The notes beneath the pieces were generated by a model. The model did not search any database. It saw only the letters and a list, made by a program, of their open reading frames with translations, and was not told the DNA's origin. Shown here one piece after another: positions 22,401 to 59,049 of a stretch of 64,000 nucleotides of DNA. Numbering within the stretch: the stretch's first letter is position 1; every line of letters starts with the position of its first letter. The stretch is from positions 18,262,912-18,326,911 of the forward strand of contig NC_092675.1 of assembly GCF_964355755.1 (NCBI RefSeq), given 5' to 3'. This DNA comes from Antedon mediterranea (taxonomy: Eukaryota > Animalia > Echinodermata). The translations under genes were made by a program, and so were the position numbers.

Positions 22401-25400
22401 AGGACTTTGAGAACTTTGGCCCTCCATTGTCATCAATGAGAACTCCTCAGTAGCATATGGGCGAAACTTGAGATGGTGGTCAGACCATAACTTTGCAATG
22501 CCGGTTTTGAACTTGTTAATCGTTGGTTCCGTCACAATATGGTTTGGTAGCGAGTTCCAATCATTTATAACTCTAACTGCATATGCTCTTTTTCTAATGT
22601 TTTTATTATATTTGGATTTCGATACCTTAAAAACATTCCCCCTGGTTTGCTGGTATTTAGATCTTTGAAATAATTTTCCTGCCTCGATATTATCAAATTT
22701 ATGAAAGATTTTAAAAGTTTGAATTAAATCCATTCTTTTCTTTCTAAAGGCTAAGATAGGCAAATCCAATAACTTCAATCTCTCTGCATATGGCTTACTC
22801 CTCAATTCAGACACTAACCTTGTGGATCTCTGTTGGACTTTTTCTAAAGGATTGTAATCTTTCTGACACAGTGGTGTCCATAAACTACCACCATATTCCA
22901 ATATAGGTCTGATCATAGATTTGTACAGATACATATAACTCATACTATCAAGAAATGTATCTTCACAGATTTTTAAACGAAAAGAAAGATTAAAATACAT
23001 GTTATTAATCTGGATTTTTTATGATTTTATGGTATTCTATTTCATATTATATCTTTTTAAGATTATATATTTTAACAATTAAGTTTTATTTACCATAGGG
23101 AGACAAAGGAGAAGATGGAAAATCAGGTCCTATGGTAAGCATAACACTACAATATAATAGAACTCTTAGCAGGCAATATCTGTATAAAAATAATAATGGT
23201 TGACATTTATATAGCCTTACAAATGTTTCTGAACACTTTACATCATACTTATATAGCTCTTTATACAAGTGTCAAAGTTCAGTTGACTAAATATATAATA
23301 ACTTTCATCACCCTTAATAATAAGATGATAGAAAAAAATTAGTGTTATAAAACTTACTTTAAAATGAATCAAAAGAGGTTGAAAGTTTGACAAATTGTTG
23401 GAGATCTTTCCAAAAAGAGGATAAAAAAATAGCAATGATTTGACAAGAAGATGGAACACATCGAGGCACAAGTTGGGTGATATTAGATGTATGAGAAAAG
23501 AATAAAGCATTAAATCAAAGAATCTCTACATGTCGAACTGCCACCAAGAGGCGCACATTTGTCTGTCAACAACAATAATAAATAATAAATGGTTTTGTTT
23601 TTACAAGTGATGATTAACATTTACATCATTTACATTAATAGGGACCTCCTGGCTCACTTGAGCTTCAGTTAAAGGGTGAACCTGGTGAGCCTGGCCTACC
23701 TGGACTCAAGGGAGACCTAGGTATTGGAAAGATGGGCCCACCTGGAAAACCAGGTGCACCAGGATTACAAGTAAGTATTATTTAATTTCCTAGGATCTGT
23801 ATTATCATTAAATCATGTAATGCTTTTCTAGGTTCAATGTGTTTACATTACAGAGTAGCTTTTGCTGTTCTTTCCTACTTCTGTTTCTATAAATAATATT
23901 TATATTTAATGATCCAGCACTCGGAAACAAATAGAAGAATTGGAAATAATGCTAATATATAATAATAAATGATTAGTTTTGCCTCAGCTGATATTTTGAT
24001 ATTATGTACCAAACATTTCTATGTTGATGTGTGCCTATATGATGTTGTGGTTTGTGGATTAGTCCATTATTGTAAAAGAATATGCAAAGAACTTTTTGTA
24101 TTATACAAGTGAGAGCTAGGAGAGCACAGATTGTTGTCGGTTTATCCAGGTAAATATTCTGTATCTTTAGTTTATATGCTAAAATTTAAATAAATAAATA
24201 TAATATCCTTAATAACTATTAAAATTCTATTTTACAGGGATCAGATGGAGCACCAGGAAAGCCAGTAAGTGTAGAATATTTTAGACTTATTAAATATCAT
24301 TGCATGTAATACTAGTGATATGCTAGGAAGAAAAGAATCATTATCAAAAGACAGTAATATAAAATAAATATCTTGGATTGACCATAGAAAGCACCTCAAT
24401 CTCAACACGTTTCTCCCTCCCCCATGCATTTAAACATTTAGAAGAAAAATAGACCTAAAATATCAATTTATTTATTATTGTATAAATATATAAATAATAA
24501 ATGCGGTACATTTCATTTCGAAATCTGAGCTGCACTGACGAGATCTAATACGATCGAAACAGTACTGTCTGCAGATTGGATAAATAATAAATGTATAAAT
24601 TTAACCAGGGCCCGGGTATACTCGATCTCATTGGCATGTATGAAGTAAGGATTTAATTAGCACCATTTCAACAGAACTAATTGTTCTTTATTTGGATTGT
24701 TAATTGATAACTTATTAAATACATCAATTATCAATTTGTAATATTAATGAATCATATTAACTTTAATTAACATCCTTCCTTATTGTATAGAACTTTTGAG
24801 GAGGTCACCACACAGGGCTCTCTCCTTTTTTCAAAGATTAGATTTAATATGTTGAAAGTGGTCATTATCACCCTTTAGTTCAATTATATTGTTTGTTAGA
24901 TCCAGATGTATTACTGTCTTATTTTAATGCTACTTATGATATGCACATGATGATTGAAAGTGAATGATACTATCTGCATTATCTTGTTGAAATGCTACAA
25001 TTTCTGCTTGTTGTCAAATTCATTAGCATTATTTTTTTTGCACGTTATACACATGCTTTATATGCTTGTAGCAAAAGGCAAATCTTTATAATTATACTTG
25101 GAGTATTGGGTCTCATTGGCATATAAAGGTTTTCTGATGCTTATGAGATATTTTATGATGATATAATATTCAAGCAATATTGGTACTATTAAAAAGTTGT
25201 GATTGGTAAATTACTTGCGGTGCACTTACGTTGCATTCAAGTAGTCCAATCAAGCTTTTAACTCCAGTTAAATTAATTTGTAATTTGCTCCAAGAGTCAC
25301 TATACAAAATAGTACTGCTATTTTACATTACATTAGTCACAAAGTCACGTTTGAAAAAGTTCACCATAGCATGATGCAAAGTTTGCTTAGAAACTGCATT

Positions 25401-26867
25401 TCTATATTGCTGCATGTGTGTTATATTTTTTATTGCACCATTCTCTACAGGGTGTTATAGGGCAACCAGGCCTCAATGGTAGTCCGGGTGTTTCCGGTCC
25501 AAAAGGAGAGCAAGGCTCTGTTGGTTTTATTGGTTATCCAGGCCCACAGGGACAACCCGGTCAAAAAGGGGATGTTGGTCTACCAGGTGAAGGTTTACCT
25601 GGTGTTCAAGGACCACCAGGAGGACAAGGACCACCAGGAGAGCAAGGGCCACAAGGAGAGAAAGGGCTGCAAGGAGATCAAGGATATGTTGGCAAACCAG
25701 GTCCATCTGGAGGTTTACCTGGCCCGATGGGTCCACCTGGAGAACAAGGATTACCTGGTGAGCAAGGATTACCTGGAATCAGTGGTCCACCTGGTGATAG
25801 AGGGCTGCCTGGTATGGGAGAAGCAGGTCCGGCTGGAGAACCTGGATTGTCTGGTGAACCTGGCCTACCAGGAATGATAGGTACACCTGGAGAACAGGGC
25901 TTACCTGGACCACAAGGACCAGCTGGTGACATAGGACCACAAGGACCAGCTGGTGAAATAGGTCAAACTGGACCCCAAGGTGATGCTGGCCAACCAGGTT
26001 TGAAAGGAGAACCGGGAATAAAGGGTGAAGTGGGCCAAACAGGGGAGGTGGGAGTTCCAGGAGAAAATGGAGAAAAGGTAGGGATTGGGCCAAGAGCTTG
26101 TTAGATTGATTTAAATATACCTTTCATCACCTGCACATGCATGGTTTTACAGCACTCAATTTAAAGCTGATAAATTTATTTAAAAAAAGTTTGTAATTTG
26201 CTCGTAACTTGAAGCATGCTTTCCATGTTATTTTTTTTTTTCAAAACAAATTATTCATATCTTTGTAAATTCTGAATGTTATGGAGTTATGTAGAAAATT
26301 ACAATAATAATAACTTACAGAATGCACTTAAAGATGTATTGTCCCCCAAAAACATGAAAAATGAAGATTAATTAAATCAGACTTTGAATATGTTATTTTG
26401 TAGTTTGAATAAAGTTAATCACTTCCATAGAAAAAAAAAAAAAAATGTTTTTACCTATAAATTGAGAAAATAAATAGTTAAATTCAACCAAAAACCCACT
26501 GGCTGGCAGCCAATTGGGCCATTTTTTGCTTTAAATTACAGTTTTTTCAGGTAAATACATTTTTTGGTCAAAGTGGATAACTATTATGTTACATTAAAAT
26601 GGCATATTCAACAAAAATGTTGTTAAGAATTATTTTTTCAGGGGGACAATACATCTTTAAATTAAATGAACATTTTAATACATAAAATTTATGAATACTA
26701 AACCACTTTTAATTTTCTACACAACTGCGTATATATTTATATTATTGGAGGATAAATAATATTAATTTTAGTTTTATTTTATAATTCTTATATTATGGAA
26801 TATGCATCACTATGTGTGTGTCCACAAATACTTTATTTATTGATTTCCTGCATACACTGTTTTGATA

Positions 26868-29900: not shown

Positions 29901-32900
29901 AGTCAAGTTTAGAAGTGTGTACAGATGTTATAATGGAACGTAATTGCTGAGTGTGGTCAAAAAGCTGATGTAGTATACAGTATACAAATGTCATTTGACA
30001 TTTCAATATTTATAAAAGAAAAGCAGTTCAATAAACCTATGCCACCAGTAGGATGCTAAGACATTCACATTACCTAAGGCAACCTTATCAAAACAGGTGC
30101 ATATGTAAACCTAATCACAAAATGGACAACTCATTGTTTTCATTAACATCTATCTTTCAAATAACCTTTATTTCAACATTTTAAATAGATTAAATACACA
30201 TTATTTTGCACGCAGCACAATGCACTCACTATATTATACACACAATTGCATTCCAAAAACTCTATGCATGAAAATGTTTTTATTTTCTCATTTCAATTTT
30301 GCCAGAGTTAGACTTATGAATTATTTCTGAAAGAAAATAATTCATAGAAAATGTATTAATTAACAAAACAAAATTATTCTACTATAAAACTATTTTACTT
30401 TAATAAAACAAAACTATTGTTTTCTTTGAAAAGATTATATTTATTTTTAAACTTGTCTATCTAATTGGGCATTGCATAAAATTTGTACCATCTCATTTGA
30501 AAACTTTTGTAGGCTTAAAAAATTGGCATTCTTTCTATATCACTTATGAATTCAAATAAAAAATTGTTTAAACCCTGACTTTATTATTACAATCATGGAT
30601 TTTAATATTCCTTTTAAGGAACTTACATTTTATTTCACCAAATTTATAAGAAAAAATAATAATTAACTATAAAAAACATAAAATAAAATATCTAATTGTT
30701 AAAATATAGGTCTGTCTCTGGCATATAGTATTCATTTTTCATTTTTAACTGCCTTAGGGTCAAAGGGGAGTACCAGGTCGTCCAGGAGGACCAGGTCAAA
30801 TAGGCCGCAGAGGAAGACGGGTATGTCATGTAAAAAAGGGAGGGAAAGATTCATAATATTTTTGTTCATTTTTTTCATTTAATTCATATTCGCTTTGAAT
30901 GAGTGGATTGCAATCTCATATTGACAATCAACACACGCATTGATATTAGAATTCATATTTTGTTGCATTTCATATACATTGATGTACAGTACTATGTTTA
31001 TTCACATAAAGATATACATCTTTGTTATTGTTTAACACAACACATTATCTTATACTATGGTTCTGATCACCTTTTAAACTAAGATTAGGAATAATTAACC
31101 AATATGATTCCTGCTTTAAGGAATGTTCTCCTTCCTTGATATACTGTTTTTTTATGTGTGTGGCTGTTGTCCTATTCTGAAATTGTGTGTGTGTTTTAGA
31201 GTTTTTTGAGTTAAATTATTGTGATGTTTTGATGTAAGAGATAAAATAAGGTACCGGGTGTCGTGTATCGTCGTAGACAAATTAATAAGTACGTTGAGAT
31301 GAGTATAATAATGAACGTATTTAATGAAACCAACTAGTAGTCATGAACAATAGTATAGAACGTTTTGTAGGCTAAACCTCGTCAGAGCATATGCGCAGTA
31401 CGCATATATATATGTGCGCGTGCATATACTACACTCCTCCTTTCTTATTTTAACGTTAACATTATATCAATAAGCACAATAAACTTTCGTTAATTATTTT
31501 GTTAATCAAATAGGTTAATCATCGTGATTAAATTACTGCTTCTATAGTTCCAGATAGTTCTTATTTGGTTCCTCATAATAATTAACAAATGTGAGTAATT
31601 CTCACCATTATAATTTTGTGTAAAAACATGAACAACATAACTTTAACGTTCATAATAATAACATTGTTCACAAGTTCTATATCTCTTCGATAAGTCGTGT
31701 TGGCTTCCTTCGAAGTCGCGTGGAGCGTCGTGGAATAACCTCAGGCGATGAAGACAATCTATGTTCCTCTTCAACCGGTTGGTTGGTGGATGTTTGCTCT
31801 TTGTTCGCAATCGTTTCGCTCGCAATCGTTATTGGTACTGTCTGTTTAATCTTGTGTTCCAACTCGCTATGTGAAGTAGGGGTTTTACTCGCGTAAGCGT
31901 CCGCGTCTGTCGCTTTCAACTGGTCAATGTGTCTTTTCCACACTCGGCCATCCTCAACACTAATTACGTATGATTTTGGTGCGGTACGTTCTATCACGGT
32001 ACCTGGCCACCACTTTCCCTCTTGTCGGAAATCTTTCACTAATACCATTTCACCTGGGTAAAATTCTCGTAGATCTTTCGTTTTGTCGTGATGAAGCTTC
32101 TGATCACTCTGCTTGTTAAGTACCTTGTTTTCTGTACTGGGATGTAAAAGTGATACTCGCGTTCTTAACTCACGGCCCATGAATAACTTCGCTGGCGTTT
32201 GTCCCGTAGTTGCGTGTTTTGTTGTGCGATACGATAAAAGAAATCTGTCCAAACATTGTTGGAAATCCTTCCCATTAGCTCGGCTTGCCGCTAACGATCT
32301 TTTGAAAGATTGAACCATTCGTTCTGCTGCTCCGTTGCTTGCGGCGTGATAAGGTGCAACCTTTACATGTTTCACCCCGTTTTGCTTTAAGAAGAATTCA
32401 AATTCGTCGCTAACAAACTGAGGTCCATTATCGCTTACAAGTTGAACAGGCAATCCGTATCTACTGAACAACTCTCTCATCGCTTTGATGGTCGCTGCAC
32501 TCGTCGTACTGTTCATCTGAACGACTTCTGGCCATTTCGAATATGAGTCAACCACTACTAGATAATCTCGTTTATCTTTCTGCGCATAGTCAATATGTAT
32601 TCGTGTCCAAGGCTGATTTGGCCAGATCCAGGGCATCATTGGTGCTACGCTTGGTCGACTTTGTGTTTGGTGACATGCTTGACATTGCTTCACCAATCGT
32701 TCAATGTCGGAATCTATCTGGGGCCACCAGACATGACTTCGCGCAATCTCTTTCATACGCACGATTCCGGGGTGAGCACAATGAAGCTCCTCCAGAACTG
32801 CCCCTCTGAGTTTCGGTGGAATCACTACCCTGTATCCCCACAGCAAACAGTCCTGTTCTACACTCAATTCGTCTCTTCGGTGTAGGAATGGTTTTAGATC

Positions 32901-35900
32901 GTCGTCGTTTTCTGACTGCCATAAACCTGTCTGTACCATGTATAACACTTTGCTCAATAGCGGGTCTTTCCTGGTATGCTGTTGTACGTTCGTACTCGTG
33001 ACTGGCAAATTGTCTAATGTATGCCCCGCTATGTTATATACTGCATCGTCTTCCCGTCCTTCGTATGGCATTGGGAGACGTGAGAGTGCGTCGGCAATTA
33101 CGTTCTGTTTTCCAGGAATGAACTTTAAATCGTATTCGAACGCTGACAGCACGATTGCCCATCGCTGTAATCTCTGTTCTAAACCTTTGAAGTCCAAACA
33201 TGATGCTTAGGGCTTCCTTGTCTAGTTGTGCATAACCCTTTTCGTGTTTATGCAGGCTTCGCGATGCGTACGCGATCGGTGTTTTGATATTGTTCTCGTT
33301 TACGTGGCAAATGACTGCGCCAACTCCGTATGGTGATGCGTCCGTGTATAGTTCCAGTGGTTTTAATGGGTCATAATGCGTCAACATCATGTCTTCGCTA
33401 ATAATTCGCTTTACCGCGTTAAACGCTTTACTACAGTCGACAGTCCATGACCATGGTTTGCTTCCCAACAGCTCATTCAAAGGATGTATCATCGTCGATA
33501 ATCGTGGAATAAATGACGCGTGATAGTTAACTAGTCCTAGCCAGGATCTTAGTTCTGTTGCATTCTGTGGTGCTCGTGCATCCTTGATGGCTTTCACTTT
33601 ATCGTTTGTCGGTTGAATTCCTGCTGCTGATAGCTTACGTCCCATGTAGACTACTTCCTTTTGTACAAACGCGCATTTCTCAGCTTTCACTCTGAGACCA
33701 TACTTGTTAAATCTCTCAAATAGTTTCTCAAGATTACTAATATGCTCTTTATCAGACGCACCTGTAACAAGAACATCGTCCATGATCGCACATGTTCCTT
33801 TAAGTCCTGCTATCACCTGTTCTATGAATCGCTGCCATATGGCTGGACTGGACGAAATACCAAACGGTAACCTCGTGTATCGATATAATCCGCGATGCGT
33901 GTTGATCGTTACCAACTCTTGCGCCTCGTCTTCCAGTACTAACTGCTGGTACGCACATTTCAAATCAATCTTAGAGAATCGCTTTCCACCTCCCAACTTG
34001 GTGAAAACTTCCTCTGGGGTCGGAATTGGATATTGGTCGCAATTTAAACTCGGGTTGACTGTTACTTTATAATCTCCGCAGACACGTACCCTGCCATCGG
34101 CCTTTGGAATACATACCAATGGGGTTGCCCACTGACTAAAGTCTACCGGATAAATAACTCCTTCGTTTTGCATTCTGTCTAACTCTACCTCAACTGCGGA
34201 GCGTAGCGCAAATGGAACATTTCGAGCTTTGCAGAATTTTGGGATTGCGTTCACTTTTAGATGTAATGTCGCTTTGTGTCCCTGAACCGTACCTAATTCC
34301 GTTCGGAAAACTTCTGGGAACTTCCGTTTGAATGACTGACCGACATCGTTATCTATTTCTACCGAATTCTGAGCAAGCGATGGTGGAAATAATGACTTCC
34401 AGTCCAACTTAATCACTTCTAACCAGGTTCTTCCAAGCAAGGGTGGTGAGTTTCGTCGCTGTGTTCTCACTACTATCAGTGGGAGAACGTTACTCTGGCC
34501 CCTATAGTTCACGGTGACTTTAATTTCTCCTGCTATATCGAGCTTAGTACCTGTGTATGCGTGAAGTGTACGTTTTACTGACTTTAATGGTAGATGGCTA
34601 AGCTTGCTTTCGTAATCGTCAAAGCTAATTATCGATACTGCTGCGCCCGTATCTACTTCAAAATCAATATCTATATCATCAACTCGCATCTGTACCGTTA
34701 TTGGTGGTACCGAATTGTCCTGCTTAATGCCTACGCAAAACATTGTATCTACAAAATCGTCATTACCTTCGTCGTAATCCGGTGCTTCTACTTGCTTGAT
34801 GGATTTAGGTTTATATTGTTTTGTTGATTTACTCGACTGCCTGCATTCTGATTTTAGGTGTCCTTGTTTGTTGCATTTAAAGCATGTAGCGTTTTTGTAT
34901 TTACACGTATCTCTTGTATGATTGTTCATACCACAGCGGTCACATTTCTGCGTTCGTGTTTGTTTTGACGCTTGATACGTTTTCGTAGACTTCCTGCTGT
35001 TAGACGTAACGTGGTTGATTGGCTTGTCCACATCGTGCGACATACTTTTCATATTCGCTGTTGCTGCCTCCGAGGCTATGGCTATGTCTGTTGCTTCCTT
35101 GAACGTATGGTTCTTTGTCAATAATTTCTTTTGGATGCTCTGACTTATTAGTCCACATACGAACTGATCACGCAGTGCGTTTTCCAATGCCTCTCCTTCA
35201 AAACCACAATGTATCGCCTTTTTCTTTAGATGGGATACAAATTGAGAAATAGTCTGTCCCGGTGTCTGTTTTACATTTCTGAATATAAATCGTTCAGAAA
35301 TCGTTATTCGAGTAGGTTTGTAATGCTCTTTGAGCTTGGTTGTGAGCGTATCGTACGATTTTGTACTTGGTTTATCAGGAAAACACAAATCTCGTATCGT
35401 TGTGTATCCAGTCTCTCCTAAACTACTCAATAATATCGCTCTTTTCTTACCTCCGTCATTGATATCTAATGCCACAAAATATTGTTCCAGCCTGTCCACA
35501 TACGTATCTATGTCTCCATCCTGGACGTTGAATTCCTCGAATAGAATTCTGGTATTAGCCGCTGCCATTACCGCGCTTCGCTCTGTACGTTCAGGGCGCT
35601 CAGAATCGTTATTAGCCTGTGCGGTTCCTTGGTTACGGTTGCCGTTGTTGGAAAATCAAAAACTGCTAGCCTAGGCTTTAGTTTTATAATATTATTATAC
35701 TAACTTCCGTTTCTCTCTATGTAAATGTGCCTGTATCCTCGTCGCCAGTGTCGTGTATCGTCGTAGACAAATTAATAAGTACGTTGAGATGAGTATAATA
35801 ATGAACGTATTTAATGAAACCAACTAGTAGTCATGAACAATAGTATAGAACGTTTTGTAGGCTAAACCTCGTCAGAGCATATGCGCAGTACGCATATATA

Positions 35901-44520: not shown

Positions 44521-46339
44521 GATTTTTTCTCATTCTCACAGATTTCTTCATCTTTATCGTTTCAAATTAATTAATTAAATTTTAGTATTTAACCGGGTGG
44601 TTTAGAATTAATGTTCTTTACCTGATTTGTTTATATATATATATATACATATATACGTAATATGGTTTCTTAATTAGATTTGGAGTACCATGATTAAAGG
44701 TGTTTGCATTAAATGCAGGTTTTGTTTTTACTGTGGAAATCAATAATCAATCAATTAAAACAGCTATTATCTATTGTTCTTATTTTGTATGTACTAGTCC
44801 TTATATTCCATCTACTTTTGTGGTAATTATTTGGGAATATTGTAGCATAATTAAAATAGTTATTAATATCTATTGTTCTTATTTTAGATTGTCAGACAAT
44901 ATTGTACATAAAGAAGAGTGATGACAGAGTTTATTTTTATTGCAAGCATAACCACCATTCTTGTATATACATTCAGCTTTAAGTTTGTAAAGTTTGAAAT
45001 TATAAAGGAATTGCCAGAATACTAATTGCTCTGTTGAATGGGTATGTGCTAACTATCATGACGCTAAAATAGGAGGAAACCTGGCAATTAAAAAAAAACA
45101 GAAATTGGCAAACAATTAAGAAGATGGTGTCTTGTCACGATGAAGCGCAGTATTAATTATTGAACAATCTGAGACTAAGATTAAGATTGTGGTATACTGC
45201 TTATAATAGCATGCCATCAGACTATCCTCTGGTAAGGTTTTCTTAACGTAAGCAAATACAAAACCTACAACAGCAGAGGATGTAAGCAGATAATTTGCAT
45301 ATGCAAGAGTTATCATATGACACCAGTGTATTAAGAATATAAGAAGACTATATGAAGTATTAATACATTATAGATGGTATATTATTATCAGTTATATAGA
45401 GAATGTAAACGAGTGGTACATAAAAATGATGCTAAATATTTGTGATATATATATTCTGTATATAATATATAAAGTATTTCTTGAAGCCCTGATCATGTGT
45501 TGATTTACTTTAAACAACATTAAATCTATGCAAACATATTTAGGAATTTAAAAAATACAGCAAAAAGGCACAAATGTATTTTGAGATGAGCAAAAACATT
45601 GTAAAGCATTCAAATTGTTTTCAAATAGTATTTATTGAATAATTGTTAAATTGGTTCATAAAAAGTGCTAAAATGTCTTATTTTAAAGTATACCATATTT
45701 TATTCAGGGGAAAGCCCCCATTGTGAAATTTAATTATAATGATAACATTAAATGCCTGCCTTCATTAAAAAAATTATAAACATTTTAGAAATATTTATTA
45801 TAGAATTTTTAACCATATAAAAGTCAAGTAATTGTTATGGGTAATGTTAACTTAGGAATTTAATCACATTTTATGAATATTTATTATAAACAACTCGCCA
45901 CATCTTGCACCTAAACAAATCATGTATACAGATCCGTGGAGATCTAATGTTTATAGTAATGTTATTATTAATGTTGTTGGATATGGAATTCAATTAGTGT
46001 TTCAGTATTATTGTTTATAAATTTTTTTGCAAAGCCAAAATATATGATAAAAATTGTAAATAAAGCTGTACAGTATTTTATTAAGTTTTAGGTAAATTTT
46101 AGACAAGTATTTCCATTTTTAATTATTTCTTTATTTTTTATATATTTTTTTTAAATGGTGTCAGTATGTTGGATTGTTGGCAATCTACACAGTGAAGCTG
46201 AAGAACATGTGTATATATATTATTGGTGTTAAAAATACCAAATTTTAACATTAAAAGTGAAATTAAACTTAAGTAGTATTTATTATAAATATAAAATGTG
46301 TATATTTAAGTTTTATTTACAAATTAACGAAACACCTAA

Positions 46340-46646
46340 AATATACATTTGTTAAAGTTTAATTCACCTACTAAATTGCTATGTTAATGATCAATATTTT
46401 AATATACATTTGTTAAAGTTTAATTCACCTACTAAATTACTATGTTAATGATCAATATTTTAATATACATTTGTTAAAGTTTAATTCACCTACTAAATTA
46501 CTATGTTAATGATCAATATTTTAATATACATTTTTTAAAGTTTAATTCACCTACTAAATTACTATGTTAATGATCAATATTTTAATATACATTTTTTAAA
46601 GTTTAATTCACCTACTAAATTGCTATGTTAATGATCAATATTTTAA
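46340..46646. repeat. 61-bp minisatellite, 5 copies, in probable collagen 3'UTR
   Basis: aatatacatt recurs at 46340, 46401, 46462, 46523, 46584. Confidence 0.95.
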
Positions 46647-49600
46647 TGTTTGTACAGAAAATTCCTGAACACAAAATACTGTAGATAATAAACAAGTTAA
46701 TATAATGTTTTTGACTTCCAAATGTAGGATATATTGTAATTAGTTTTGGATAGGCCTATTGTTTTGTTTATTCCAAATATGTGCACCTTATGTGTAATCA
46801 ACTGGGCCGTTTTGAGCAGATAAGCCATATTTGACTGGGATGTTTTGAGCAAATCTAGCCCCCCTTGCTGTTCATATGCAAGCAGTGGGAGTAGCTCAAT
46901 GCGAGGTGCTTGCGAGTGATCAGTTGAATACGCCTCCTATTGTCTTTGACATAATTTGCTATTTTATTATTAAAATGTATTTTCAATATATTGGTTCATT
47001 GCTGTTTATAAAACAGTGTTGTAAGTTAAAGTGGATCATGTGCACATCATAGTATAGTTGACAAAATATGAATGTTTATAGCTATAGAATGATGTTTATT
47101 AACAGATAATGGCTGAAAGTTGTGACTACACAATACCATATTTATGTGCATACATGTTCATTGTTGTATAAATACCTGTTATGGTTTGTTGTTTGTTTAC
47201 ATTTGTTAATTAATCATCCATTATAGAATAGTATTAATATGGTCGATTTACCAAATTTTGTAATTACACAGAAGATGTGTAATATATAGTATTTTAACTT
47301 CTTCTAACAAGCTTGCTATTGATTTCATTGTGTAATTGTTTTAAAGTAATATAAACTTGTTGTAGTAATGCAATCATATATGGTAATTAAAAATCATCAC
47401 TAACACATTTAGTTATAACTACATCATTACTAACACATTTGTCCTGATATTTTCTCAATTCAATTTTAAGTGTGTAAATTTGTTAGTGCTACAGTATTAC
47501 TATAAAGTGTCTAATAGCTAATTAGCTCTCAGCAGTAAAATTATAGATCTGCAAACCATGTAAATGTATTCAAAATAAATGCCTCTTTTCTGTGCATAAG
47601 TTTAAATGCAGTTGGTTTTATAAATGTCATCAATGTTATTACACGTTTATAGTTCTAATGGTTGAAAAGTGCTGTATTTGCCCATTACAACCTTCTCATA
47701 ATGCCTGTAGTACTAATCATGTTTCTTTACCAAATCCCCTTGGAACAATTGATCCAAAAAAGTTTAATTATTGGGGAGTGAAATACTATGGTTCTAAATC
47801 AATTAATGTCACTAGTTATTTTTATAATTATTTAATGAAAATGATGTTATTTTTACATAATGTATATTTATTATTTATAAACCAATAATCTAATTATAAA
47901 TTTTAAAGTAGTGGTCTATTATTGTTTTTTGAAGTAGAATATTTACAAAGGAAGGTTGTTTTAGCTTTCTAAGAAAAGGACACTGTTGATTATATGTGTT
48001 GGTGCTGTTAATGTTAAATTAAATAAAAACATTAAACAAATTTGAACTTCCAATATAATTTTTAATTATCTAAAACTTGTAATACACTTAATACATAAAA
48101 ACCTTGTTTACATAAAATCTGTTTTGAACATAAAACACTTTTATTAATTGATATCCTTTTATATTGAATCTAATTTAGACTGATCTGTGATATACATTTA
48201 AAAAATAGCATACAAATGACATTGTTCAGATAAAGCATACTTATATAAACATCTTTGATCTTATTGCATAACCATACTTATTAATAATAACATCCAATTG
48301 TTATTGTAGCCATTTGATTGAATCCGATTTATAAAGATGTTTGTTGTTATACATACTTAAACAAAATTAAAATGATATTGTTCAGTTAAAGTATCAATTT
48401 ATATTAAATCTGATTTTGGAAACATCTTTGATAGATGTTATTAATTAGTGCTTGTTATGTTTTTTGTTATAATACAAGCAGTGTGTCAACCCATGTATAG
48501 TGAATGTTCAACAGAACTTTCCAATATTAATAAAACAAGAATGTTAACAGAAACTGTCTAGTTAATTGTTTTAATTTTAGAAGAAAAATTACAATCATTA
48601 TATTTACAATCATTTCATTAAAACCAACACAATGATCAAATGTTTTTACACATTTTAAACATTCACTAAAAACTAAAAAACCTAAATAAATATACTGTAA
48701 TATCATTTTTATTTGATTTTTTATTAATTAAAGTAGAAAGAATTAATCTATTCTAGTAATCACCTGTTTGCAGAAATTAATTAATTAAAAATTAATTGAA
48801 TACTAAAAACAACCATACAAAAATGGTTTTAAATTATTTACATATTTCTATTCTAGTTAATCATTTAAACATTTCATTTGGCACCATATAAAAAAAGAAC
48901 CCATTTTAATACGTTCCTATACAATTTTTACGTAGACCACCAAGTTAAAATCTTATGTTATTATACATAAGCAAGAATACATTTTATTTCCATTAAACTA
49001 ATTAACTAAAAAAGGAATAGGAAAAAAATAGAATTTCTCTTTTTACTATTAATTTAAACCATCCTGCATTTTTCATAAATTTTAACAAGATAATTCATCT
49101 TCTCAACAAAAACATTTTTCTTAACAAAGCACATGACTACTTTTTTGTACAGTATTCTCTGTTTACATTAAAATACTTTGAAATGATTTTGCAACATTTA
49201 AAGTCTTAACTTTTTTGGATAAATATTTACAGGATTGCTATTGTACACTTGAAATGTGCATCAGTAGGCCAACTACAAACATGTTGATTGGTTTCTAATA
49301 CTGACCTTTCTTCATCAGCAACTACAGTGTTTAATACCATGTCACATAGTTCTTGATGGGCTAATGGGTCTTTTGATTTATCTAGAAAATAAATGTAAAT
49401 AAAAAATGATTCCATAATCTAGTAAAATAAGTTAAAAACACTATCAAGAATTGTAACCTAATTCTCTATTCTCAGATCTTCATTACATTATAGAGTAACG
49501 CTTATAGTCCAAAATATAGGATATAAGATGAATTCATTAGAAAAGTTGCCACATGGATGGATGGAAAACAGGGATAGAGAATCATCAATTCAAAGTACTG

Positions 49601-49762: not shown

Positions 49763-52700
49763 TCATAACTGTTCTGTTGCTGGTTGTGTCTTGTTGACAA
49801 TTTCAGTTGGCTGTGTCGCATTATCTGATGAAGTATGTTGACAATCAATAATCTTTGGTGTAACTTGTGGCTGAAGAGAGCAAGACTCTTGGTTGTTGGG
49901 TGGAATACTTTCATTTGGTTGTCTTTCTATCAAAGACTGATTGGTGGATGATGCTGATGATGGTTCATCTTTTCTTTTATCAGAATCTTGCACAACATAA
50001 GCACAAGTTGAGGAGCTGACAGCAGTAGGCATTGTTTCAGATTCAGGTTTTTGCTGCACCTTCTGCATGCCATCATTGTCATGGTGAATGTACGGACAAA
50101 GTCCTAGTGGCTGTGGAGCAATCTGTGCTGGCGACACAATGTGGTTGTGTTTCTTCATTGGATTTTCAGCAGCTTTCATTTGCTCCATGAATGAAATGTT
50201 CATACCCTGGTTTTGGTAGTTGCCACCAAACTGCCCAAAATGCGCCATGTTGCCATTGTTGGCGACATTGCCAAACGGAGGGACCATCATAGGCTGGGGC
50301 TGCATAATATTTAATGCTGGATGCTGCTGGTTGCCACCATCCCCAAATGAATGTGCATTATTGTTTTGGGGCATAATATAAGCTGGCATCACATTACCTG
50401 GCATCATTGAACTAAAAGCAGTTGCGTTCTGCGGCCCCATCATTTGTTCATTTGACATCGCCATTGGCATCATCATGTATTGAACCTGCTGATTGTTGGA
50501 ATAATTTACTTTACGCTGTACCTTGCGTCGGCGTCTTGGAAGTGGAGCTTGTGGATTGTAATTGTCATTGATAGACCAGAAACACCCCTTTCGATGGCTT
50601 TCGTTTTTATTTTCATCAGCTCTTCTGGATTTGAAAGCTGGATGAGTTAATGCATGTCTAACAGAGCTCTGTAGTAGATCAAAATATTGTACATAAGCTT
50701 TTATTGTGTAATTTATTTTATTTGAACCATATTTAATGATGGTGATCCTTCCAGCAATTGCTGATCATTTGGGACCCTCAGAACAGATACAATACACAAA
50801 ATACAACAGTTAAAGTTACAGTACAAATCCTATAAATAAAATAAATTACATGAGAATTAATTAAGTAATTAGGTAGTTATTTTTGTTACTATTTAATATT
50901 GAACATTCCACAAATAATTAATAGTGAATCTGGAATTGTTCTTCCTGTTCAAAAGCTTGGTGGCTCATGACCTAAAGTTTGCCAGCAAACTTATGTTGGC
51001 CTCCTTACAAACAAACATCCTTATGTGAAATTCATTACTTACACTTTGCAAACAAACAAAGTTGTAATAAATTATTTTTTAATCTCTGTTGCTTATTCTA
51101 CAATCTTTCAAATATAAGAAAAGCATGTTTCTCACCATCCAACTTTTCTTCTTCTGACCATGATATGTTGTATATAATGGATAGAGTTTTCTGTTTGATA
51201 AAAAAGAAATCCAGTAACACAGTAACAAATTATACATGTACTTATTATATAATTTTGATATGGAATTATTATATATTGGTGTAAAATGGAGTTTTAAAAC
51301 TTTTACTTCCAAGGTATTTTAATATAACATTAGAATCAAAAAGAAGTTATGTTAATGATATCTTTCTCAGACATGAACATTGCAGTAAAGAAATTATTGT
51401 AAAAAAAATTTACGTTAATTCATGGTAGACTTCACATGGTTGCATTTCTGTCTTTTTGCATATTTTAAAAACATGTAAAACTTGCTGTACAAGACCCTGT
51501 GATGGCCGACCATCCATTCTGTACAAAGGTGACACGCTTTGTTCTTCTCCACTTGATATGGGATCATTATTTTGAATTACCAAGTCTAATTGAAAAAAGA
51601 AATGAAATATTAGATTAAAGCACACATTTTTGGGATAAATATTTGTATTATAAAGGTTAGAAAAAGTATTCATGAATAGGCAAATTATCAAGAATTCAAG
51701 AAAAATATGAATGCAAGACCAACCTGTTTTCAATGGTGAAATGGTTGTCATTATTGGTGCCTTCATCATGTACTGATTGTAATTATGTTCACTCTTGACT
51801 GGTGATGAATAAATTACTGTATCCCCACTACCACCAGCAATGATACTTGTCTGCGGATGAACGGTACTATTCATAGGAGGATGACTTAATGTCTGATTTT
51901 CAACTGCACCTGGTTGCAATGTAGAGATTGGTGGCAATTGACCATAATTTTGCATTGTCAACCCGCTGTTAAAATGAACTTGGTTTTGTGGCATATGTAT
52001 TACACTATTAATATTAGGGTATGTTGCTCGGTTAGACAGAGCATGGCTAGAGTATGGGACTGACTGTGTACTCATCTGTTGTCGGTTCCCTCTTCTTGGA
52101 GAAGAAAAGTGATGATGAAGAGGCATGGAAGGATTGTATTGGTTATGCACTGGTAATTGAGATGTTTGATCAGGATCAGTCTGTCCTTGATGAAAGTTCA
52201 TCATCATTGCATTTTGTTCTTGATGAAATCTTGTTGGGTGACCAAGACTGTCATGTTTTGTTAATGTTATTGTTGGCATTGCTGTTTGAACTGCTGGTGC
52301 TTCTTGTTTAATTTGTTGAAAATGATTCTCCATTTGATGAGGTTGAGATCTTCTTGCATCATCAATCAAGTGCCCACTATCTTCAATTTCATTTTCCTGC
52401 TTTGGTGTCAAAATTACTCTTGTATCTGATGTTGCTCGCATAAGGATATCCTCTTCCACTTGTTCAGCTGGAATAAACACACAATGTTCTCCATTTTCGG
52501 ACATTGCAATGTATCCTTCTTGTTGAACAAGGTCATTTTCTTTGGCATCATTTATTTTTTCATTTAGACCTACTACTTTATCTTGGTTATCGCATATCGG
52601 ATTTACACCTGACTCTGTGTCCCAACACTTTTCTTCAATGAGTAAAGATGATCTCTCATTGTTGATAGAATTCTCTGTGAGAGTGGGCGAATATTGGTCC

Positions 52701-52861
52701 GCTCCCTTCGTGGAAGGCTTCTCTTCCGTCGGCGGTAGGGCTAAATCAGGTTCAGGCTTACGAGAATTTTCACCATACACATTTGAATGTACTACAACGC
52801 TCTGTTCTTCATTTATTGAAGAACATGCCGTGGTACTATTAGTCTCCATTGTTTCATTCAA
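49763..52861 (-). CDS. Divergent forkhead-box (winged-helix) transcription factor, ~756 aa; exons 52861-51724, 51585-51414, 51190-51136, 50668-49763
   Basis: Phase-compatible GT-AG junctions assemble RPSQGLVQQVLHVFKICKKTEMQPCEVYHELT|KLYPLYTTYHGQKKKSWM|SSVRHALTHPAFKSRRADENKNESHRKGCFWSIND, followed by basic PRRRRKVQRK. This matches forkhead landmarks (P..Y, W.NSIRHNLS, F, KG.YW) and is flanked by Q/M/S-rich low-complexity regions. Confidence 0.8.
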
Positions 52862-53071: not shown

Positions 53072-53590
53072 ATTATGTAAGTATGATGCGCTGCAAGATC
53101 CGACGTTTTTATGAAACTGTGTCCTGAAAAAGTTGTTGAATGGGCCTCTAGGCGCGCCTATCCATTTTTATGTCATATAATCATTATACAAATTGATTCA
53201 TATTCATTTGATCAAAACAAAAAAATTAATCGTAATTAAAGTTCAACCGAAAATTGTCTAGAATTAAGTCAGTCAATGATGGGTTATTCAATTGTTTATT
53301 TTGTCTAAAGCGAAATGATTATTAATAACTTTCAAAATGGCCTATGGTTTCATTACATTATAATAGGCTTTGTGCTGCCTTTGCCCCATCATTTTTTATT
53401 GTTATACTTGTATTACATTTTGATATAGGACCGATCTATGATACGATGATAATATTGACATTATAACAAAATAATAACAATTTAATTGTGATTGGTTGAA
53501 TATAGACATACAAATACAATATATATATTATAAAAGAATCATAAACCAGTTCTAATTGTGATCGTTCAAATTTAGGCCTACCTTTCTTAA

Positions 53591-56500
53591 TCTATATCTA
53601 TATATAAATTTACGTAAGGGCAAAATTCGGTAAATCGCGCCTTACTTCTAGAATTTTTACTCGATGGTATATAAAGTTGGTTCGTACTTTCGGTACTGAT
53701 TTTAACCACCTGATTTAACCCTGTTTACTAATTAAATTATGTTAGATAATTAGTTATTGACGATTAAAACGAATTTAGGTTCAACGAATAGGGGTGTTTT
53801 CCGATCGTGGTATACACTGTCTAATGGATGTCCATCTTGAAAAATACCCGCCACAAAAATGCGAGGAGGCTTCGCATTTTCCTATCTCCTCCTACGATAA
53901 TTGTTTTTAATAGCTGAAAACCGGTTGAACAGCTAGAGTACAGCATCATAATGTTGAAGACAGGCCGATTTTCTTTAAAAAATACTATTTTGATAGATTT
54001 GATATACGATTATACAAATGTACTGATTTGCGATGAATGGAACATTCCAATCTCTGTTCCTCAAGTGTCTATTCCCTCAGGCGTCGTAAAGGCAAGTACT
54101 GTATACTCATAACAGAAATTCGATCCATTTTTTTTTTCAATCTGTGCTGCAGTGGTTGGATATACATTTTTTTTAACGGATAATGAGCTAGAGTTTTCAC
54201 TCGCCGTATATTATGTACAAATCTTTATTATTGCAATTAAACCACCCACATCATCACCCTTCTCTCACTGGCATGAGTAGCGTTGTAAAACCAGTAGAGG
54301 ATAGGCCTACGGTACATCACATGCCCTAAACGCAGAACAACTTTGGTGGGTAGGGTAGGAACCAACTTAAGTATGAATTGGCTCTAAGAAACAATTGAAA
54401 ACCATTAGGCCTACTAATTAAGTTGAGTTAGATAATTTAATATTTATTGACGCAAGCGCAGGGCGATGTAAACAAAACAACTCAGGTCAACCAAAAACTT
54501 CCGGAATTTGAATTGCGTTGTGGGTAATGATGACGTGATTTTAAAAACCGATTACCCGAATAACCGATTAAAGTAGTAGCAATTTTCAATTGCAACGCGA
54601 TTATTTTTGTGGTTTGCGGTGACTGGAAAAAATCGATTATTTTGATTTTTTCAGCAGAAACAGACCCTAAGAAACAATTGAAAACCATTAGACCTACTTA
54701 TTAAGTTGAGTTAGATAGTTTAATATTTATTGACGATTAAATCGAATTTATGATTTTCCCCGAATAGAGGTGGTTTTCACAAATTGTTTTACATTATATA
54801 GGGCTAAACATATACACGTCGTAGTGATGTATCGTTACATGTACTGTACTATTTCAATCGACTTGGACGGTGATAGTTTCAACAAAGTATTACATCGCAA
54901 TGTTTTACTGTGTTTAGTGGTATATTATTTGTAAAACATGAAAACAATTAATATTTCGTTACTAAATAGATAAAGAATATATTTAAAAATTGTTCCTCTT
55001 TGCACCCATCCTCTTCCCCATCCCTCAACCCTAATGTTACATACAAAACACAAATTAAGTTTGTTTAAATTTGACTTAAACAATTGGTCTCATTTTGTGA
55101 CAAGTTTCTCTTTCGGAAGTAATTCCCAGGGTGCTAATTTTAGTTGAGTACATAAATCACATTGTCTATTTATTCGTTCCTGTAAACGACATGTATTTGT
55201 CCTGCGGTACGTACATTTGAAATCACCAGTTTTTTAACGCTGAAATTATTATGTATTCGAGAACCATCTGTGGGCACGACCTAGATGGTACGCGAGCGAA
55301 GCGAGCGTACCATCTAGTTATAATAAGTGAGAGAGTTTGTACGTTTGTTTGTTCGTTATACAAATTGTTGTTACTGCATATAACCTTACTACTCTAGTAG
55401 CTAGATCAACTTTCGTATGCACTTTGAGGTCCAGAGAATTTGACTTCAGAAATTGGTTTAGGGTGGTCAAACAATCATTTTTGGCTTGGTTACACATTTT
55501 GAAAATGTGGCGAAAGGTCAAAAGGTCAGGGTGAAAGGTCATAAGACCAAACACCAATATGTCCTTAAATCTCAACAACCACTGGTCACAGCGAAGTAAT
55601 TTTGGTCTCAAATTGATCAGAAGGTATACATTTATATTCAGTCTAATGGGACATTTTAGTCAAAAATGACCGGAAATGCCATTTCTGACCTTTGACCCAC
55701 ACCTCAGGGCATGTATGTATCTCCGTAACTACTGATCGTAGACACTTAAATTTGGTCTTAAATTGTTTGAAATAAATATTTATTATTTGTAGCACATTTT
55801 TTAAAATGTTACAAAAGGTCAAAGGGTCAAGGTCAAAGGTTATATGAACAAATAAAAATAGATACTTGTATCTCGGCAACCACTCGTCGCAGCAAGTCAA
55901 TTTTAGTTTCAAAATGTTCAGAAGGCATGCTTTCATATTCAATCTAATGAGACATTTTAGTCAAAAATTATCAGAAATGCCATTTCTGACCTTTGACCCA
56001 CATATCATGGCATCTTCATATCTCTGTAAGTACTGGTCGTAGAAACTTAAATTTGGTATCAAATTGTTCGAAATATACATATTTACATTCATTGTAATAG
56101 AAAATGTGGTTAAAAGATGAACAGAAATACTATTACTAATGTTTCAAACAAAAAACATATCTCTACATAACTTATCCTTAGACAGTAATGTTATGCAATA
56201 ACTGATACTTTAAATTGTTTCAATTTCAAGTACTAGTTATTGCTGACCCCAAGAACATTTTGATAGAAACGTCAAGCTCAACAGTTCTTTTCAGAATGCT
56301 AGAAGTAACTTTCCATGTGTATCCGATTAAACTCCCCGGGCATTTAAGGGTTTTTAGGGGCAGGGGAGGCATCTTTATTTGTGGTATAATATGGTAATAT
56401 GTATAATCAAATAAATACCACCTAGATGTAAAAAAAAATACAGCACAATTAATATCAAAAAGTGAAAAAAATGCTTGGTAAATTGTAGATTATGGTAGTT

Positions 56501-59049
56501 AATGTGTTGTGATACAATTATTGTGTAAATGCATGTGGCGGGCGTATTCCACGGTGTTCTATTAGAGGGAATGGTGGCGTTTATTTGAGAGAGGCTTTTA
56601 TTCAAAGCGGGTGTTAATTCGAATAAATACTCTAATTTTAATAATTATAATTCGTTTCTCAACTGATAAAAGGTACTTTACATGATTCGTTTTCTTCTTT
56701 ATGCTTTTTAACGAAATGTTTCTGTCTTTTAGAATAAAAGTGACACTGTCATAGATAACATTAAATGGATCTTCTCTTCCAGGTGCCAGTATAATGATAT
56801 AAAACAATGACACATCATTATCCTGAAACAATTGCACTCATAATGGATCTTCATTCTATCATCTGTTTGTTTGTGACTACAATTTGACAACAATCTTTTG
56901 CATATTTTTAAATGCCAATACATAGCTTCATTACTATTGTACAATATGTCCAGCTTTCCTGAAAACACCCTTGTGTACTGTAGTACAGTGTTGTAGTATG
57001 ATTTTATCATGATAACTTCTGATGCTTTTATTGTCAATGAATTCAGTACCTAAAACATGTCAAAGTTTCTAGTGGTATTGATAATAAATCTCCAGAAACA
57101 TATATTGTTTTATTATCTACACTGGGAACAGACGTGTATAATATATACCGACAAAACTTATACATATTATGTATAAGTTTTGTCGGTAACATTCAAAAAT
57201 ATTATGCAACAGTGTTACGGAATAATGACAATGAATTGGTCTATTATAGTTGTCTGTGATACCTTTTATTACATGATTGTACTTGCAACAGGATAGAATG
57301 AGGTTTAATCCAGTTATTATTCTTATTATATTAATTTTTTTTTTTATCTGGGGTGTATTTATTTGATTATACATGTTACCATTATTACACCCAAACAAAA
57401 TAAACGCCTTCCCTGAATAACTAAATGCCCGGACCTTTTATTCGGGTAACTATAGTAAGTTACTTCTAGCATTCTTAACTGTTGAGCTCGAGTATTTATT
57501 CGAATTAACACCCGCTTTGAATAAAAGCCTCCATTCCCTCCAATAGAACATCATGTGGAATAAACGCTCCGCCACATGCATTTACAAAATAATTGTATCA
57601 CAACACATTTCATTAATTACCATAATCTACAATTTACCAAGCATTTTGACATAATGTTATCATTTTTTTATATTAATTGTGCTGTATTTTTTTACATCTA
57701 GGTGGTATTTATTTGATTATACATGTTACCATATTATACCCCAAATAAAGATGCCTCCCCTCCCCCTAAAAACCCTTTTGAACAATAAATGCCCGGGGCG
57801 TTTAATCGGATACACATGGCAAGTTACTTCTAGCATTCTGAAAAGAACTGTTGAGCCTGACGTTTATATCAAAATGTTCTCGTGGACAGCAATAACTAGT
57901 AGGCCTACTTGAAATTGAAACAATTTAAAGTATCATATTGCATAACATTACTGTCTAAGGATAGGCCTAAGTTGTGTAGAGATATGTTTTTTGTTTGAAA
58001 CATTAGTAATAGTATTTTCTGTTCATCTTTTAACCACATTTTCTATTACAATGAATGTAAATATGTATATTTCGAACAATTTGATACCAAATTTAAGTTT
58101 CTACGACCAGTACTTACAGAGATATGAAGATGCCCTGGTATGTAGGTCAAAGGTCAGAAATGGCATTTCTGATCATTTTTTACTAAAATGCCCCATTAGA
58201 TGGAATATAAATGCATGCCTTCTGAACATTTTGAGACCAAAATTGACTTGCTGCGACCAGTGGTTGCCGAGATACAAGTACCTTTATTTATTTGTTTATA
58301 TAACCCTTGACCCTGACCCTTTGACGTTTTGTAACATTTTTCAAAATGTTTTTCATATAACAAAATATATATTTCGAACAATTTAAAACCAAATTCAAGT
58401 GTCTACGACCAGTAGTTACGGAGATAAATACAATTATCTCTGGGAAGGGGATGGTTTGGGGTGAGGTCGTAGGCCTTTCAACATGACGGAGACTGAAACT
58501 GTACTGGGAGTGTAATGTACAAACTACGTTTGAAAACTGGCACTGAGGGGTTATGAGTTGGGAGTAATTGCGTAACACGCGTCTTAAACACATCACCAAG
58601 AACGGGGTGTGTTGGGAGGGGGAAGGGTGGAGATATTACTGGAATTTGGAGGTAATAGAAGTACAACATAATTGTAATTGTACTGTACTTACTACATTTG
58701 TTCACTGTCCTAGAGAGTAGTTAAGGTTTGGTGATTGTGGTGTAATGGGGAGAGGAGAAAAATAGGGGGAAGATGTAATAGCGGTATCCAAATTAGATAT
58801 TTAATCCATTGCCAATATACACATTCATAGCAGCTATAGGGGTACCCCTCTCATTTTGAAGCTAAAGTTGAATAATTTATCCTGGGAAGAATTTGTTTTT
58901 AAAAAAGAGTGTGGGGTGTTTTTGAAGAGGGGTGGAGGTTTGTGAGAGATAGTGGGAGATACTGGCGCCAGGTCTTATGTACTACTGAGAAGGCTTTAAA
59001 CTAATTTTGAAACCCGCCCTGTTGGGGCGGGCCTAAGCCTAATTGCTAG
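53591..59049 (+). mobile_element. Non-autonomous composite Helitron (~5.5 kb)
   Basis: a|TCTATATCTATATATAAA 5' end; 3' hairpin cccgccc-tgttg-gggcggg (59013-59031) followed 14 nt later by CTAG|t; second internal hairpin+CTAG at 55281-55317; no TSD. Confidence 0.72.
55718..58426. repeat. Long inverted repeat: arms ~55718-56632 and ~57490-58426, ~860-bp spacer
   Basis: Arms are reverse complements along their length, e.g. ttattcaaagcgggtgttaattcgaataaatactc vs gagtatttattcgaattaacacccgctttgaataa; paralogous ORFs on opposite strands. Confidence 0.92.

Follow-up and report, generated by a model that had tools for sequence, protein, structure and literature searches.

A Fox gene on the minus strand

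The window analyzed here, a 64,000-nucleotide stretch of the genome of the echinoderm Antedon mediterranea, contains on its minus strand a Fox gene with four exons (52849–51724, 51585–51414, 51190–51136, and 50668–49763), all boundaries of which have GT donors and AG acceptors. The spliced frame is open over 752 amino acids and identical to RefSeq XP_071953328.1, which is named only 'uncharacterized protein' and carries a precomputed hit to Pfam PF00250. Since RefSeq has both the model and the hit and lacks only a name, the forkhead domain that an earlier note on this DNA had called hidden is not hidden from annotation. As that note had stated, the domain is contained in no single open reading frame: Pfam gives no match for the exon 2 piece and 20 bits against PF00250 for that of exon 4, below the cut-off of 27.

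Coding exon 1 (51724–52849, minus strand, as are the other exons), identical to the corresponding part of XP_071953328.1, begins with an ATG at 52849, encodes residues 1–375, a low-complexity N-terminal region with no Pfam match, and ends in a phase-1 GT donor. The forkhead domain starts in exon 2 (51414–51585) with R-P-S-Q-G-L (residues 402–407, from position 51508), followed by helices 1 and 2, and the next intron (junction 51414/51190) is in phase 2; unnamed exon fragments of the echinoderm type have the same end codon as exon 2. Exon 3, only 55 nucleotides long (51136–51190), encodes the helix 2–3 loop, which has a four-residue insert, and extends up to W450-M451, after which a phase-0 intron follows (junction 51136/50668). 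Residues 450–459 read W-M/S-S-V-R-H-A-L-T, the slash marking this intron. The recognition helix within them, S452-S-V-R-H-A457-L-T459 (50645–50668, minus strand), has serine in place of the base-reading asparagine and alanine in place of the second asparagine, keeps the arginine and the histidine, and is one residue shorter than the canonical sequence before the next phenylalanine.

Exon 4 of isoform X1 (49763–50668) encodes helix 3, wing 1, a K-G-C-F-W strand, a basic stretch, a tail rich in Q, M, P, and N, and the stop codon; the basic stretch (residues 496–504, near 50536–50510) is likely to be a DNA-backbone contact or a nuclear signal. Isoform X2 (RefSeq XP_071953329.1, 592 amino acids) has an alternative last exon (49227–49381, minus strand), to which splicing proceeds from a donor inside exon 4, after 50398. 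Intron 3 contains a short high-copy repeat at 50711–50808, with a contig depth in the thousands and many loose ends, and one allele lacks 34 bases of the same intron (50956–50989).

This gene is real. Both junctions proved exact as the earlier note had given them (GT/AG ends, an open frame, identity with RefSeq), and the R-P-S-Q-G-L and W-M/S-S-V-R-H-A-L-T motifs are present as described there. Support for the junctions comes from the RefSeq model and from a gap-free alignment with orthologues; no read covers either of them. In sequencing run X1, RNA only by guess, exon 4 contains two contigs, both short and of low depth, and none crosses a junction; the introns are covered as DNA in runs X2, X3, and X5. 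An intact frame of 752 amino acids, orthologues conserved in five classes, and two RefSeq isoforms leave a negligible probability that the locus is a decayed pseudogene or owes its reading frame to a chance splice.

Predicted fold of the forkhead domain

A profile comparison and a structure prediction, both of which the earlier note had proposed as checks, agree with a forkhead assignment. The spliced protein matches PF00250 with 33.3–33.8 bits, above the curated cut-off of 27. The domain model obtained with AlphaFold2 from a four-row alignment (mean pLDDT 79) has the predicted winged-helix forkhead fold: Foldseek returned forkhead domains in every row listed, and among the 48,161 chains compared by VIA-align, the top 10 are all forkhead domains (Z 8.5–10.9). 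Forkhead clusters in the ESM Atlas, at 0.76–0.88, were treated as leads only. As modelled, then, the domain folds as a forkhead winged helix.

Two introns lie inside this domain. An intron at W-x is common to other Fox classes, and sharing it with them therefore shows an affinity to clade II, not membership of FoxZ. The possession of one or more introns inside the forkhead domain is the mark of clade II Fox genes (PMC9539403, PMC8918179), and the Antedon gene has this mark. The core of the earlier note, namely that a real and very divergent forkhead domain with a W-x/ intron and a changed recognition helix, plausibly of altered DNA specificity, lies outside the standard classes, is borne out.

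Orthologues in echinoderms and a hemichordate

A search with residues 397–505 singled out four of 17 candidate proteins, namely the query itself and its orthologues from Patiria, Amphiura, and Diadema (51–55% identity), and W-M-S-S-V-R-H-A-L is invariant in all four aligned rows. A profile search covering 1.84 billion representatives yielded 207 matches to E 0.001; the best 150 of these were used, and among them were further orthologues from S. purpuratus (LOC100889230), Apostichopus, and the hemichordate Ptychodera flava. The sea urchin and sea star orthologues are annotated and unnamed, and a full-text search for the accessions of the urchin, sea star, and sea cucumber orthologues returned no papers. 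The seven ambulacrarian species used in trees form one clade (95–100% bootstrap). Helix 3 reads S-S-[VI]-R-H-A-L in orthologues of all five echinoderm classes and of Ptychodera; judged from these alignments, the changed helix is conserved, not decayed, and the term 'lineage-specific' used in the earlier note is too narrow for a gene found in all five classes and an acorn worm.

Two sea urchin genes, SpFoxX (DQ286743) and SpFoxY (AF517552), resemble the Antedon gene as long-branch echinoderm Fox genes that are not assignable to a class (PMC4077281). However, their published domains keep N-S-[VI]-R-H-N-L (PMC4077281, compared by eye) and the canonical spacing, and the S. purpuratus orthologue is a separate protein, LOC100889230, whose motif is absent from the nine supplements of that paper; we therefore rejected an identity with FoxX or FoxY. 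Because both keep the canonical asparagines, the Antedon-type gene is a third gene. FoxT resembles the Antedon gene in having once been taken for an orphan; this invertebrate class received its name recently. It was rejected too, helix 3 of Owenia OFUSG26073.1 being W-Q-N-G-I-R-H-R-L-S with canonical spacing (by eye; the trees have no FoxT row).

Characters shared with protostome FoxZ

Among the best 150 of the 207 profile matches, the ambulacrarian rows are followed by a group with an identical helix. Potamilus KAK3581527.1, which shares a 90% cluster with the FoxZ-type match P0035 of this set, is listed as Fox-OG16/NA, the group containing oyster Fox-Z (PMC12530298, Table S6). The FoxZ of Yang et al. 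2014 and Wu et al. 2020 (via PMC12530298), Fox-OG16/NA, and Owenia Orphan-2 are one and the same; the last, from the PMC9539403 supplement, is a member of the FoxZ group with the same domain as row P0062. In PMC12530298, Fox-OG16/NA is called mollusc-specific, and Wu et al. are credited with reports of Fox-Z from one species each of brachiopod, annelid, scorpion, and centipede, which later studies are said not to have recovered; elsewhere FoxZ is described as protostome-specific (PMC9716669).

A combined profile of both groups detected 73 proteins among 4,706 candidates. Named members of the FoxZ group come from bivalves, gastropods, a chiton, an octopus, Capitella, Lingula, Strigamia, Centruroides, and ticks, which have many paralogues; Strigamia, Centruroides, Lingula, and Capitella are also the genera from which, by the account in PMC12530298, Wu et al. 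had described Fox-Z. Among the 73, none is named as a protein of amphioxus, a tunicate, a vertebrate, an insect, a cnidarian, or Saccoglossus, which is weak evidence of absence, this having been a search by name words in which several rows are unnamed. In hard ticks (Dermacentor, Rhipicephalus; rows P0017–P0205) the paralogues are numerous, with over a dozen models, some partial, in D. silvarum alone. Tick gene models and fragments of the FoxZ group break at W-x/S, the position of Antedon intron 3.

From helix 1 to the phenylalanine after helix 3, the alignment of the ambulacrarian with the FoxZ group is free of gaps, and in helix 3 each of 14 rows drawn from both has Ser, Ser, Arg, His, and Ala. 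Protostome FoxZ and the Antedon gene have in common the S-S-[IV]-R-H-A-L helix, the four-residue insert in the helix 2–3 loop, the one-residue deletion after helix 3, the loss of the canonical N-terminal motif, and (in tick models) the W-x/S intron. For character counts, helix 3 was parsable in 193 of 215 proteins, which we split at 90 bits into 69 rows at or above this score and 124 below it; the 69 are not independent, as they include isoforms and tick paralogues, and the scoring profile was built from the two groups. The serine is present in all 69, the alanine in 67, and the deletion and the insert in 68 each; 65 combine all four. The canonical base-reading motif N-[SA]-[IV]-R-H is thus absent, Ser standing for Asn in every one of these rows, with His kept in 68 of the 69. 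Among the 124 lower rows, the serine is found in 18, the alanine in 22, the deletion in three, and the insert spacing in 29; the single row that has all four characters is a FoxZ-type fragment, and two of the three with the deletion are fragments of the FoxZ or ambulacrarian group. A P-Y-S-Y-type domain start is present in none of the 69 high rows and in 88 of the 124 lower ones. The one-residue deletion was seen in no row of the part of the reference Fox alignment examined (the second of two parts, by eye). The shared helix 3 residues and the two indels, which we take as defining FoxZ from this alignment and not from print, are all present in the ambulacrarian gene. A helix with Ser and Ala at canonical spacing also occurs in Mortierella and Haplosporangium (P0036, P0039) and in the fungal or FoxQ2-like rows P0206–P0210, a case of repeated convergence; in all, the pair is convergent in 13 other rows (Mortierella-type, FoxQ2-like).

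The Antedon gene differs from FoxZ in having only about 29% identity with it and in lacking both the Q-K-W-F segment and the motif found upstream in FoxZ. Mean identity of the ambulacrarian rows is 28.8% to FoxZ, barely more than the 26.4% to other rows. With a FoxZ-only profile, eight ambulacrarian rows scored 52–63 bits, not higher than the best outsiders (57–63 bits), although with an ambulacrarian profile, 8 of 23 FoxZ rows scored above every outsider. For the motif conserved upstream of the domain in protostome FoxZ, nine of nine ambulacrarian proteins gave less than 2 bits or no match with a profile that also misses two of nine held-out FoxZ rows. This weak reciprocal profile result, the missing upstream motif, and the independent evolution of the Ser+Ala pair in fungal and FoxQ2-like rows would all suit an orphan Fox class specific to Ambulacraria and unrelated to FoxZ, with a convergent helix, convergent indels, and a tree grouping produced by long-branch attraction. 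Such a class is unlikely in our estimation, as two indels, two substitutions, and the loss of the P-Y-S-Y-type start would need to have arisen twice.

Phylogenetic placement

Tree rows were hand-picked subsets of the matches, with outgroup class labels assigned by eye and with FoxO, P, M, N2/3, H, and T not represented among the outgroups. In careful trees the clade of ambulacrarian and FoxZ proteins received a support of 94/87 (60 rows), 97/93 (38 rows), and, with five convergent Ser-bearing rows added, 95/85 (45 rows), and after removal of the Ser, Ala, and loop columns it retained an SH-aLRT of 86 in a quick tree. Its persistence both beside other Ser-bearing long branches and, in the quick tree, without the diagnostic columns argues against a class confined to Ambulacraria. 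A first quick tree (144 of 153 rows, nine fragments or duplicates having been dropped) had the long row P0098 inside the ambulacrarian group; in the careful tree it lies outside.

AU tests rejected neither the union of the ambulacrarian group with FoxN1/4 (p 0.156) nor that with the Mortierella orphans (p 0.404). When extracted, the ambulacrarian group alone falls beside Mortierella rows and FoxZ alone among FoxN1/4 rows. The lack of significance in the former tests and the differing positions in the latter are what the Ambulacraria-specific class would lead one to expect, and since each group is placed elsewhere when alone, long-branch attraction is possible. Both branches are long.

The same results bear on a second alternative, that the gene is not an ancient class of its own but a fast-evolving FoxN1/4 paralogue, alone or together with FoxZ, in which case GACGC binding would have been inherited from FoxN1/4. 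Beyond the AU value of 0.156 and the position of FoxZ alone, FoxN1/4 rows are the nearest ones, and human FOXN1 (PDB 5ocn/6el8) is the best sequence match of solved structure, including the R-K-G-C-x-W wing. However, identity to FoxN1 is only 24–26%, FOXN1 keeps Asn317 and P-D-G-W and has neither the insert nor the deletion, and the Antedon protein has kept neither the P-D-G-W loop nor the N-S-V-R-H-N-L-S helix. Furthermore, in the 60- and 45-row trees the FoxN1/4 rows form a supported clade of their own, away from the group, and we consider this paralogy decidedly unlikely.

We therefore prefer the reading in which the Antedon gene is the deuterostome orthologue of protostome FoxZ, which the alignments and trees make probable. 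Because the AU tests do not reject the alternatives and both branches are long, the probability is no more than fair, and it rests mostly on the joint indels. The phylogeny that the earlier note had called for places the gene outside the standard classes in the best trees, in union with FoxZ, with partial outgroups and with the AU alternatives standing; the note's 'lineage-specific Fox orphan' says too little of a gene that most likely groups with protostome FoxZ.

Predicted DNA recognition and function

Direct bonds to bases are made, in solved Fox–DNA complexes, by no residues of N-[SA]-I-R-H other than the Asn and the His (PMC8501956). The earlier note had attributed base contacts to NxxRHxxS as a whole: among the residues changed here, the first Asn alone is documented as a direct contact, and the His is kept. 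The canonical Asn forms a bidentate bond with an invariant adenine of RYAAAYA, which it reads in this way, and in GACGC it flips and reads guanine (PMC7062188). Yeast Fhl1, specific for FHL (GACGC), has Ser at this position, and the authors suggest that Ser can reach the guanine and not read the adenine (PMC7062188). The P-D-G-W loop has been linked to GACGC binding by Newman et al. (PMC7062188), and the helix 2–3 loop, which is where the four-residue insert of the ambulacrarian/FoxZ group sits, tunes the choice between RYAAAYA and GACGC (PMC12795473).

On this background, helix 3, with its Arg, its His, and the basic wing kept, would still enter the major groove. Ser452 would not be able to make the two-point adenine contact of the canonical Asn, and with this contact removed, binding would be expected to shift away from RYAAAYA, either to a GACGC-type site as in Fhl1 or to a new or partner-dependent one; the long low-complexity arms may act as regulatory regions. 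As far as its residues can tell, the protein is probably a nuclear DNA-binding factor with a reduced reading of RYAAAYA. By analogy with Fhl1, a GACGC-type preference is tentatively put forward as the single most likely site, a proposal limited by the absence of the P-D-G-W loop. Fhl1 shares the Ser and may serve as a functional analogue; however, it is fungal, and the rows taken as Fhl1-like (one with an FHA domain) keep the second Asn and the canonical spacing and lie outside the clade. Human FOXR2 also has Ser at the base-reading position (reference alignment), and the flatworm FoxA(P) genes have the Ala and keep the first Asn in the supplement rows displayed (PMC7859237).

A domain that is retained but has lost sequence-specific DNA binding, acting as a cofactor, a chromatin binder, or a competitor of other Fox proteins, would account for the missing Asn, otherwise nearly invariant, for the loss of the canonical N-terminal motif, and for the low Pfam scores (33–55 bits across the group). 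We find this improbable: the Ser, Ser, Arg, His, and Ala of helix 3 are as invariant over the 14 rows as expected of a reading surface, the basic wing is kept, and in Fhl1 the same Ser goes together with binding to a specific site. The gene is more plausibly, and with reasonable probability as a whole, a conserved forkhead gene of echinoderms and a hemichordate, likely the deuterostome FoxZ, that encodes a predicted factor not reading RYAAAYA in the usual way. Concerning its role, FOXZ of the surfclam Mulinia is a testis-specific hub gene (PMC9716669), and by analogy with bivalve FoxZ a function in testis or germ line is our best guess, though a tentative one.

Implications for Fox gene evolution

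If the orthology holds, the origin of FoxZ, described in print as specific to protostomes or to molluscs, goes back to the ancestor of protostomes and deuterostomes. The list of Fox genes in the bilaterian ancestor is widely used as a reference, and for echinoderms the sea urchin set has been the standard since 2006; a conserved echinoderm and hemichordate Fox gene that these lists lack and that is connected with the disputed FoxZ group would add a class to the bilaterian ancestor and settle whether FoxZ is real. Neither this gene nor a deuterostome FoxZ is reported in the open full texts on FoxX/FoxY, on FoxZ, and on the Fox families of bivalves and echinoderms, a scope mostly outside subscription journals, so that a prior mention is possible. 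The literature covered includes PMC9269926, PMC5638244, PMC13666137, PMC5090362, and PMC11202624, and the motif of the gene has no match in six searched supplements of PMC8918179.

In a more far-reaching scenario, speculative and in its entirety rather unlikely, FoxZ would be an unrecognized Fox class of the bilaterian ancestor that echinoderms, hemichordates, molluscs, annelids, brachiopods, myriapods, and chelicerates have retained and that has apparently disappeared from chordates and insects; its helix would have been rewritten for a non-canonical site before protostomes and deuterostomes split, and its function in male germ cells would be conserved. As a natural and long-conserved Asn-to-Ser variant, the helix offers a test case for the switching between RYAAAYA and GACGC, called unresolved in recent work (PMC12795473).

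Sequences flanking the gene

Upstream of the gene, positions 53400–58700 of the window are occupied by dense high-copy repeats with repeated short frames. On the downstream side (45000–49000), long contigs of run X1 lie over non-coding DNA, possibly the 3′ end of a neighbouring gene. Broken frames of a gag-pol-like LTR retrotransposon are found at 31680–35655 (minus strand), with zinc knuckle, protease, and integrase-like motifs recognized by eye, and frames resembling, also by eye, the ends of non-LTR or Penelope-type retroelements at 22362–23018 (minus strand) and 14331–14777 (plus strand). A collagen triple-helix exon (25391–26101, plus strand; PF01391, 114.7 bits) is part of a neighbouring collagen gene.
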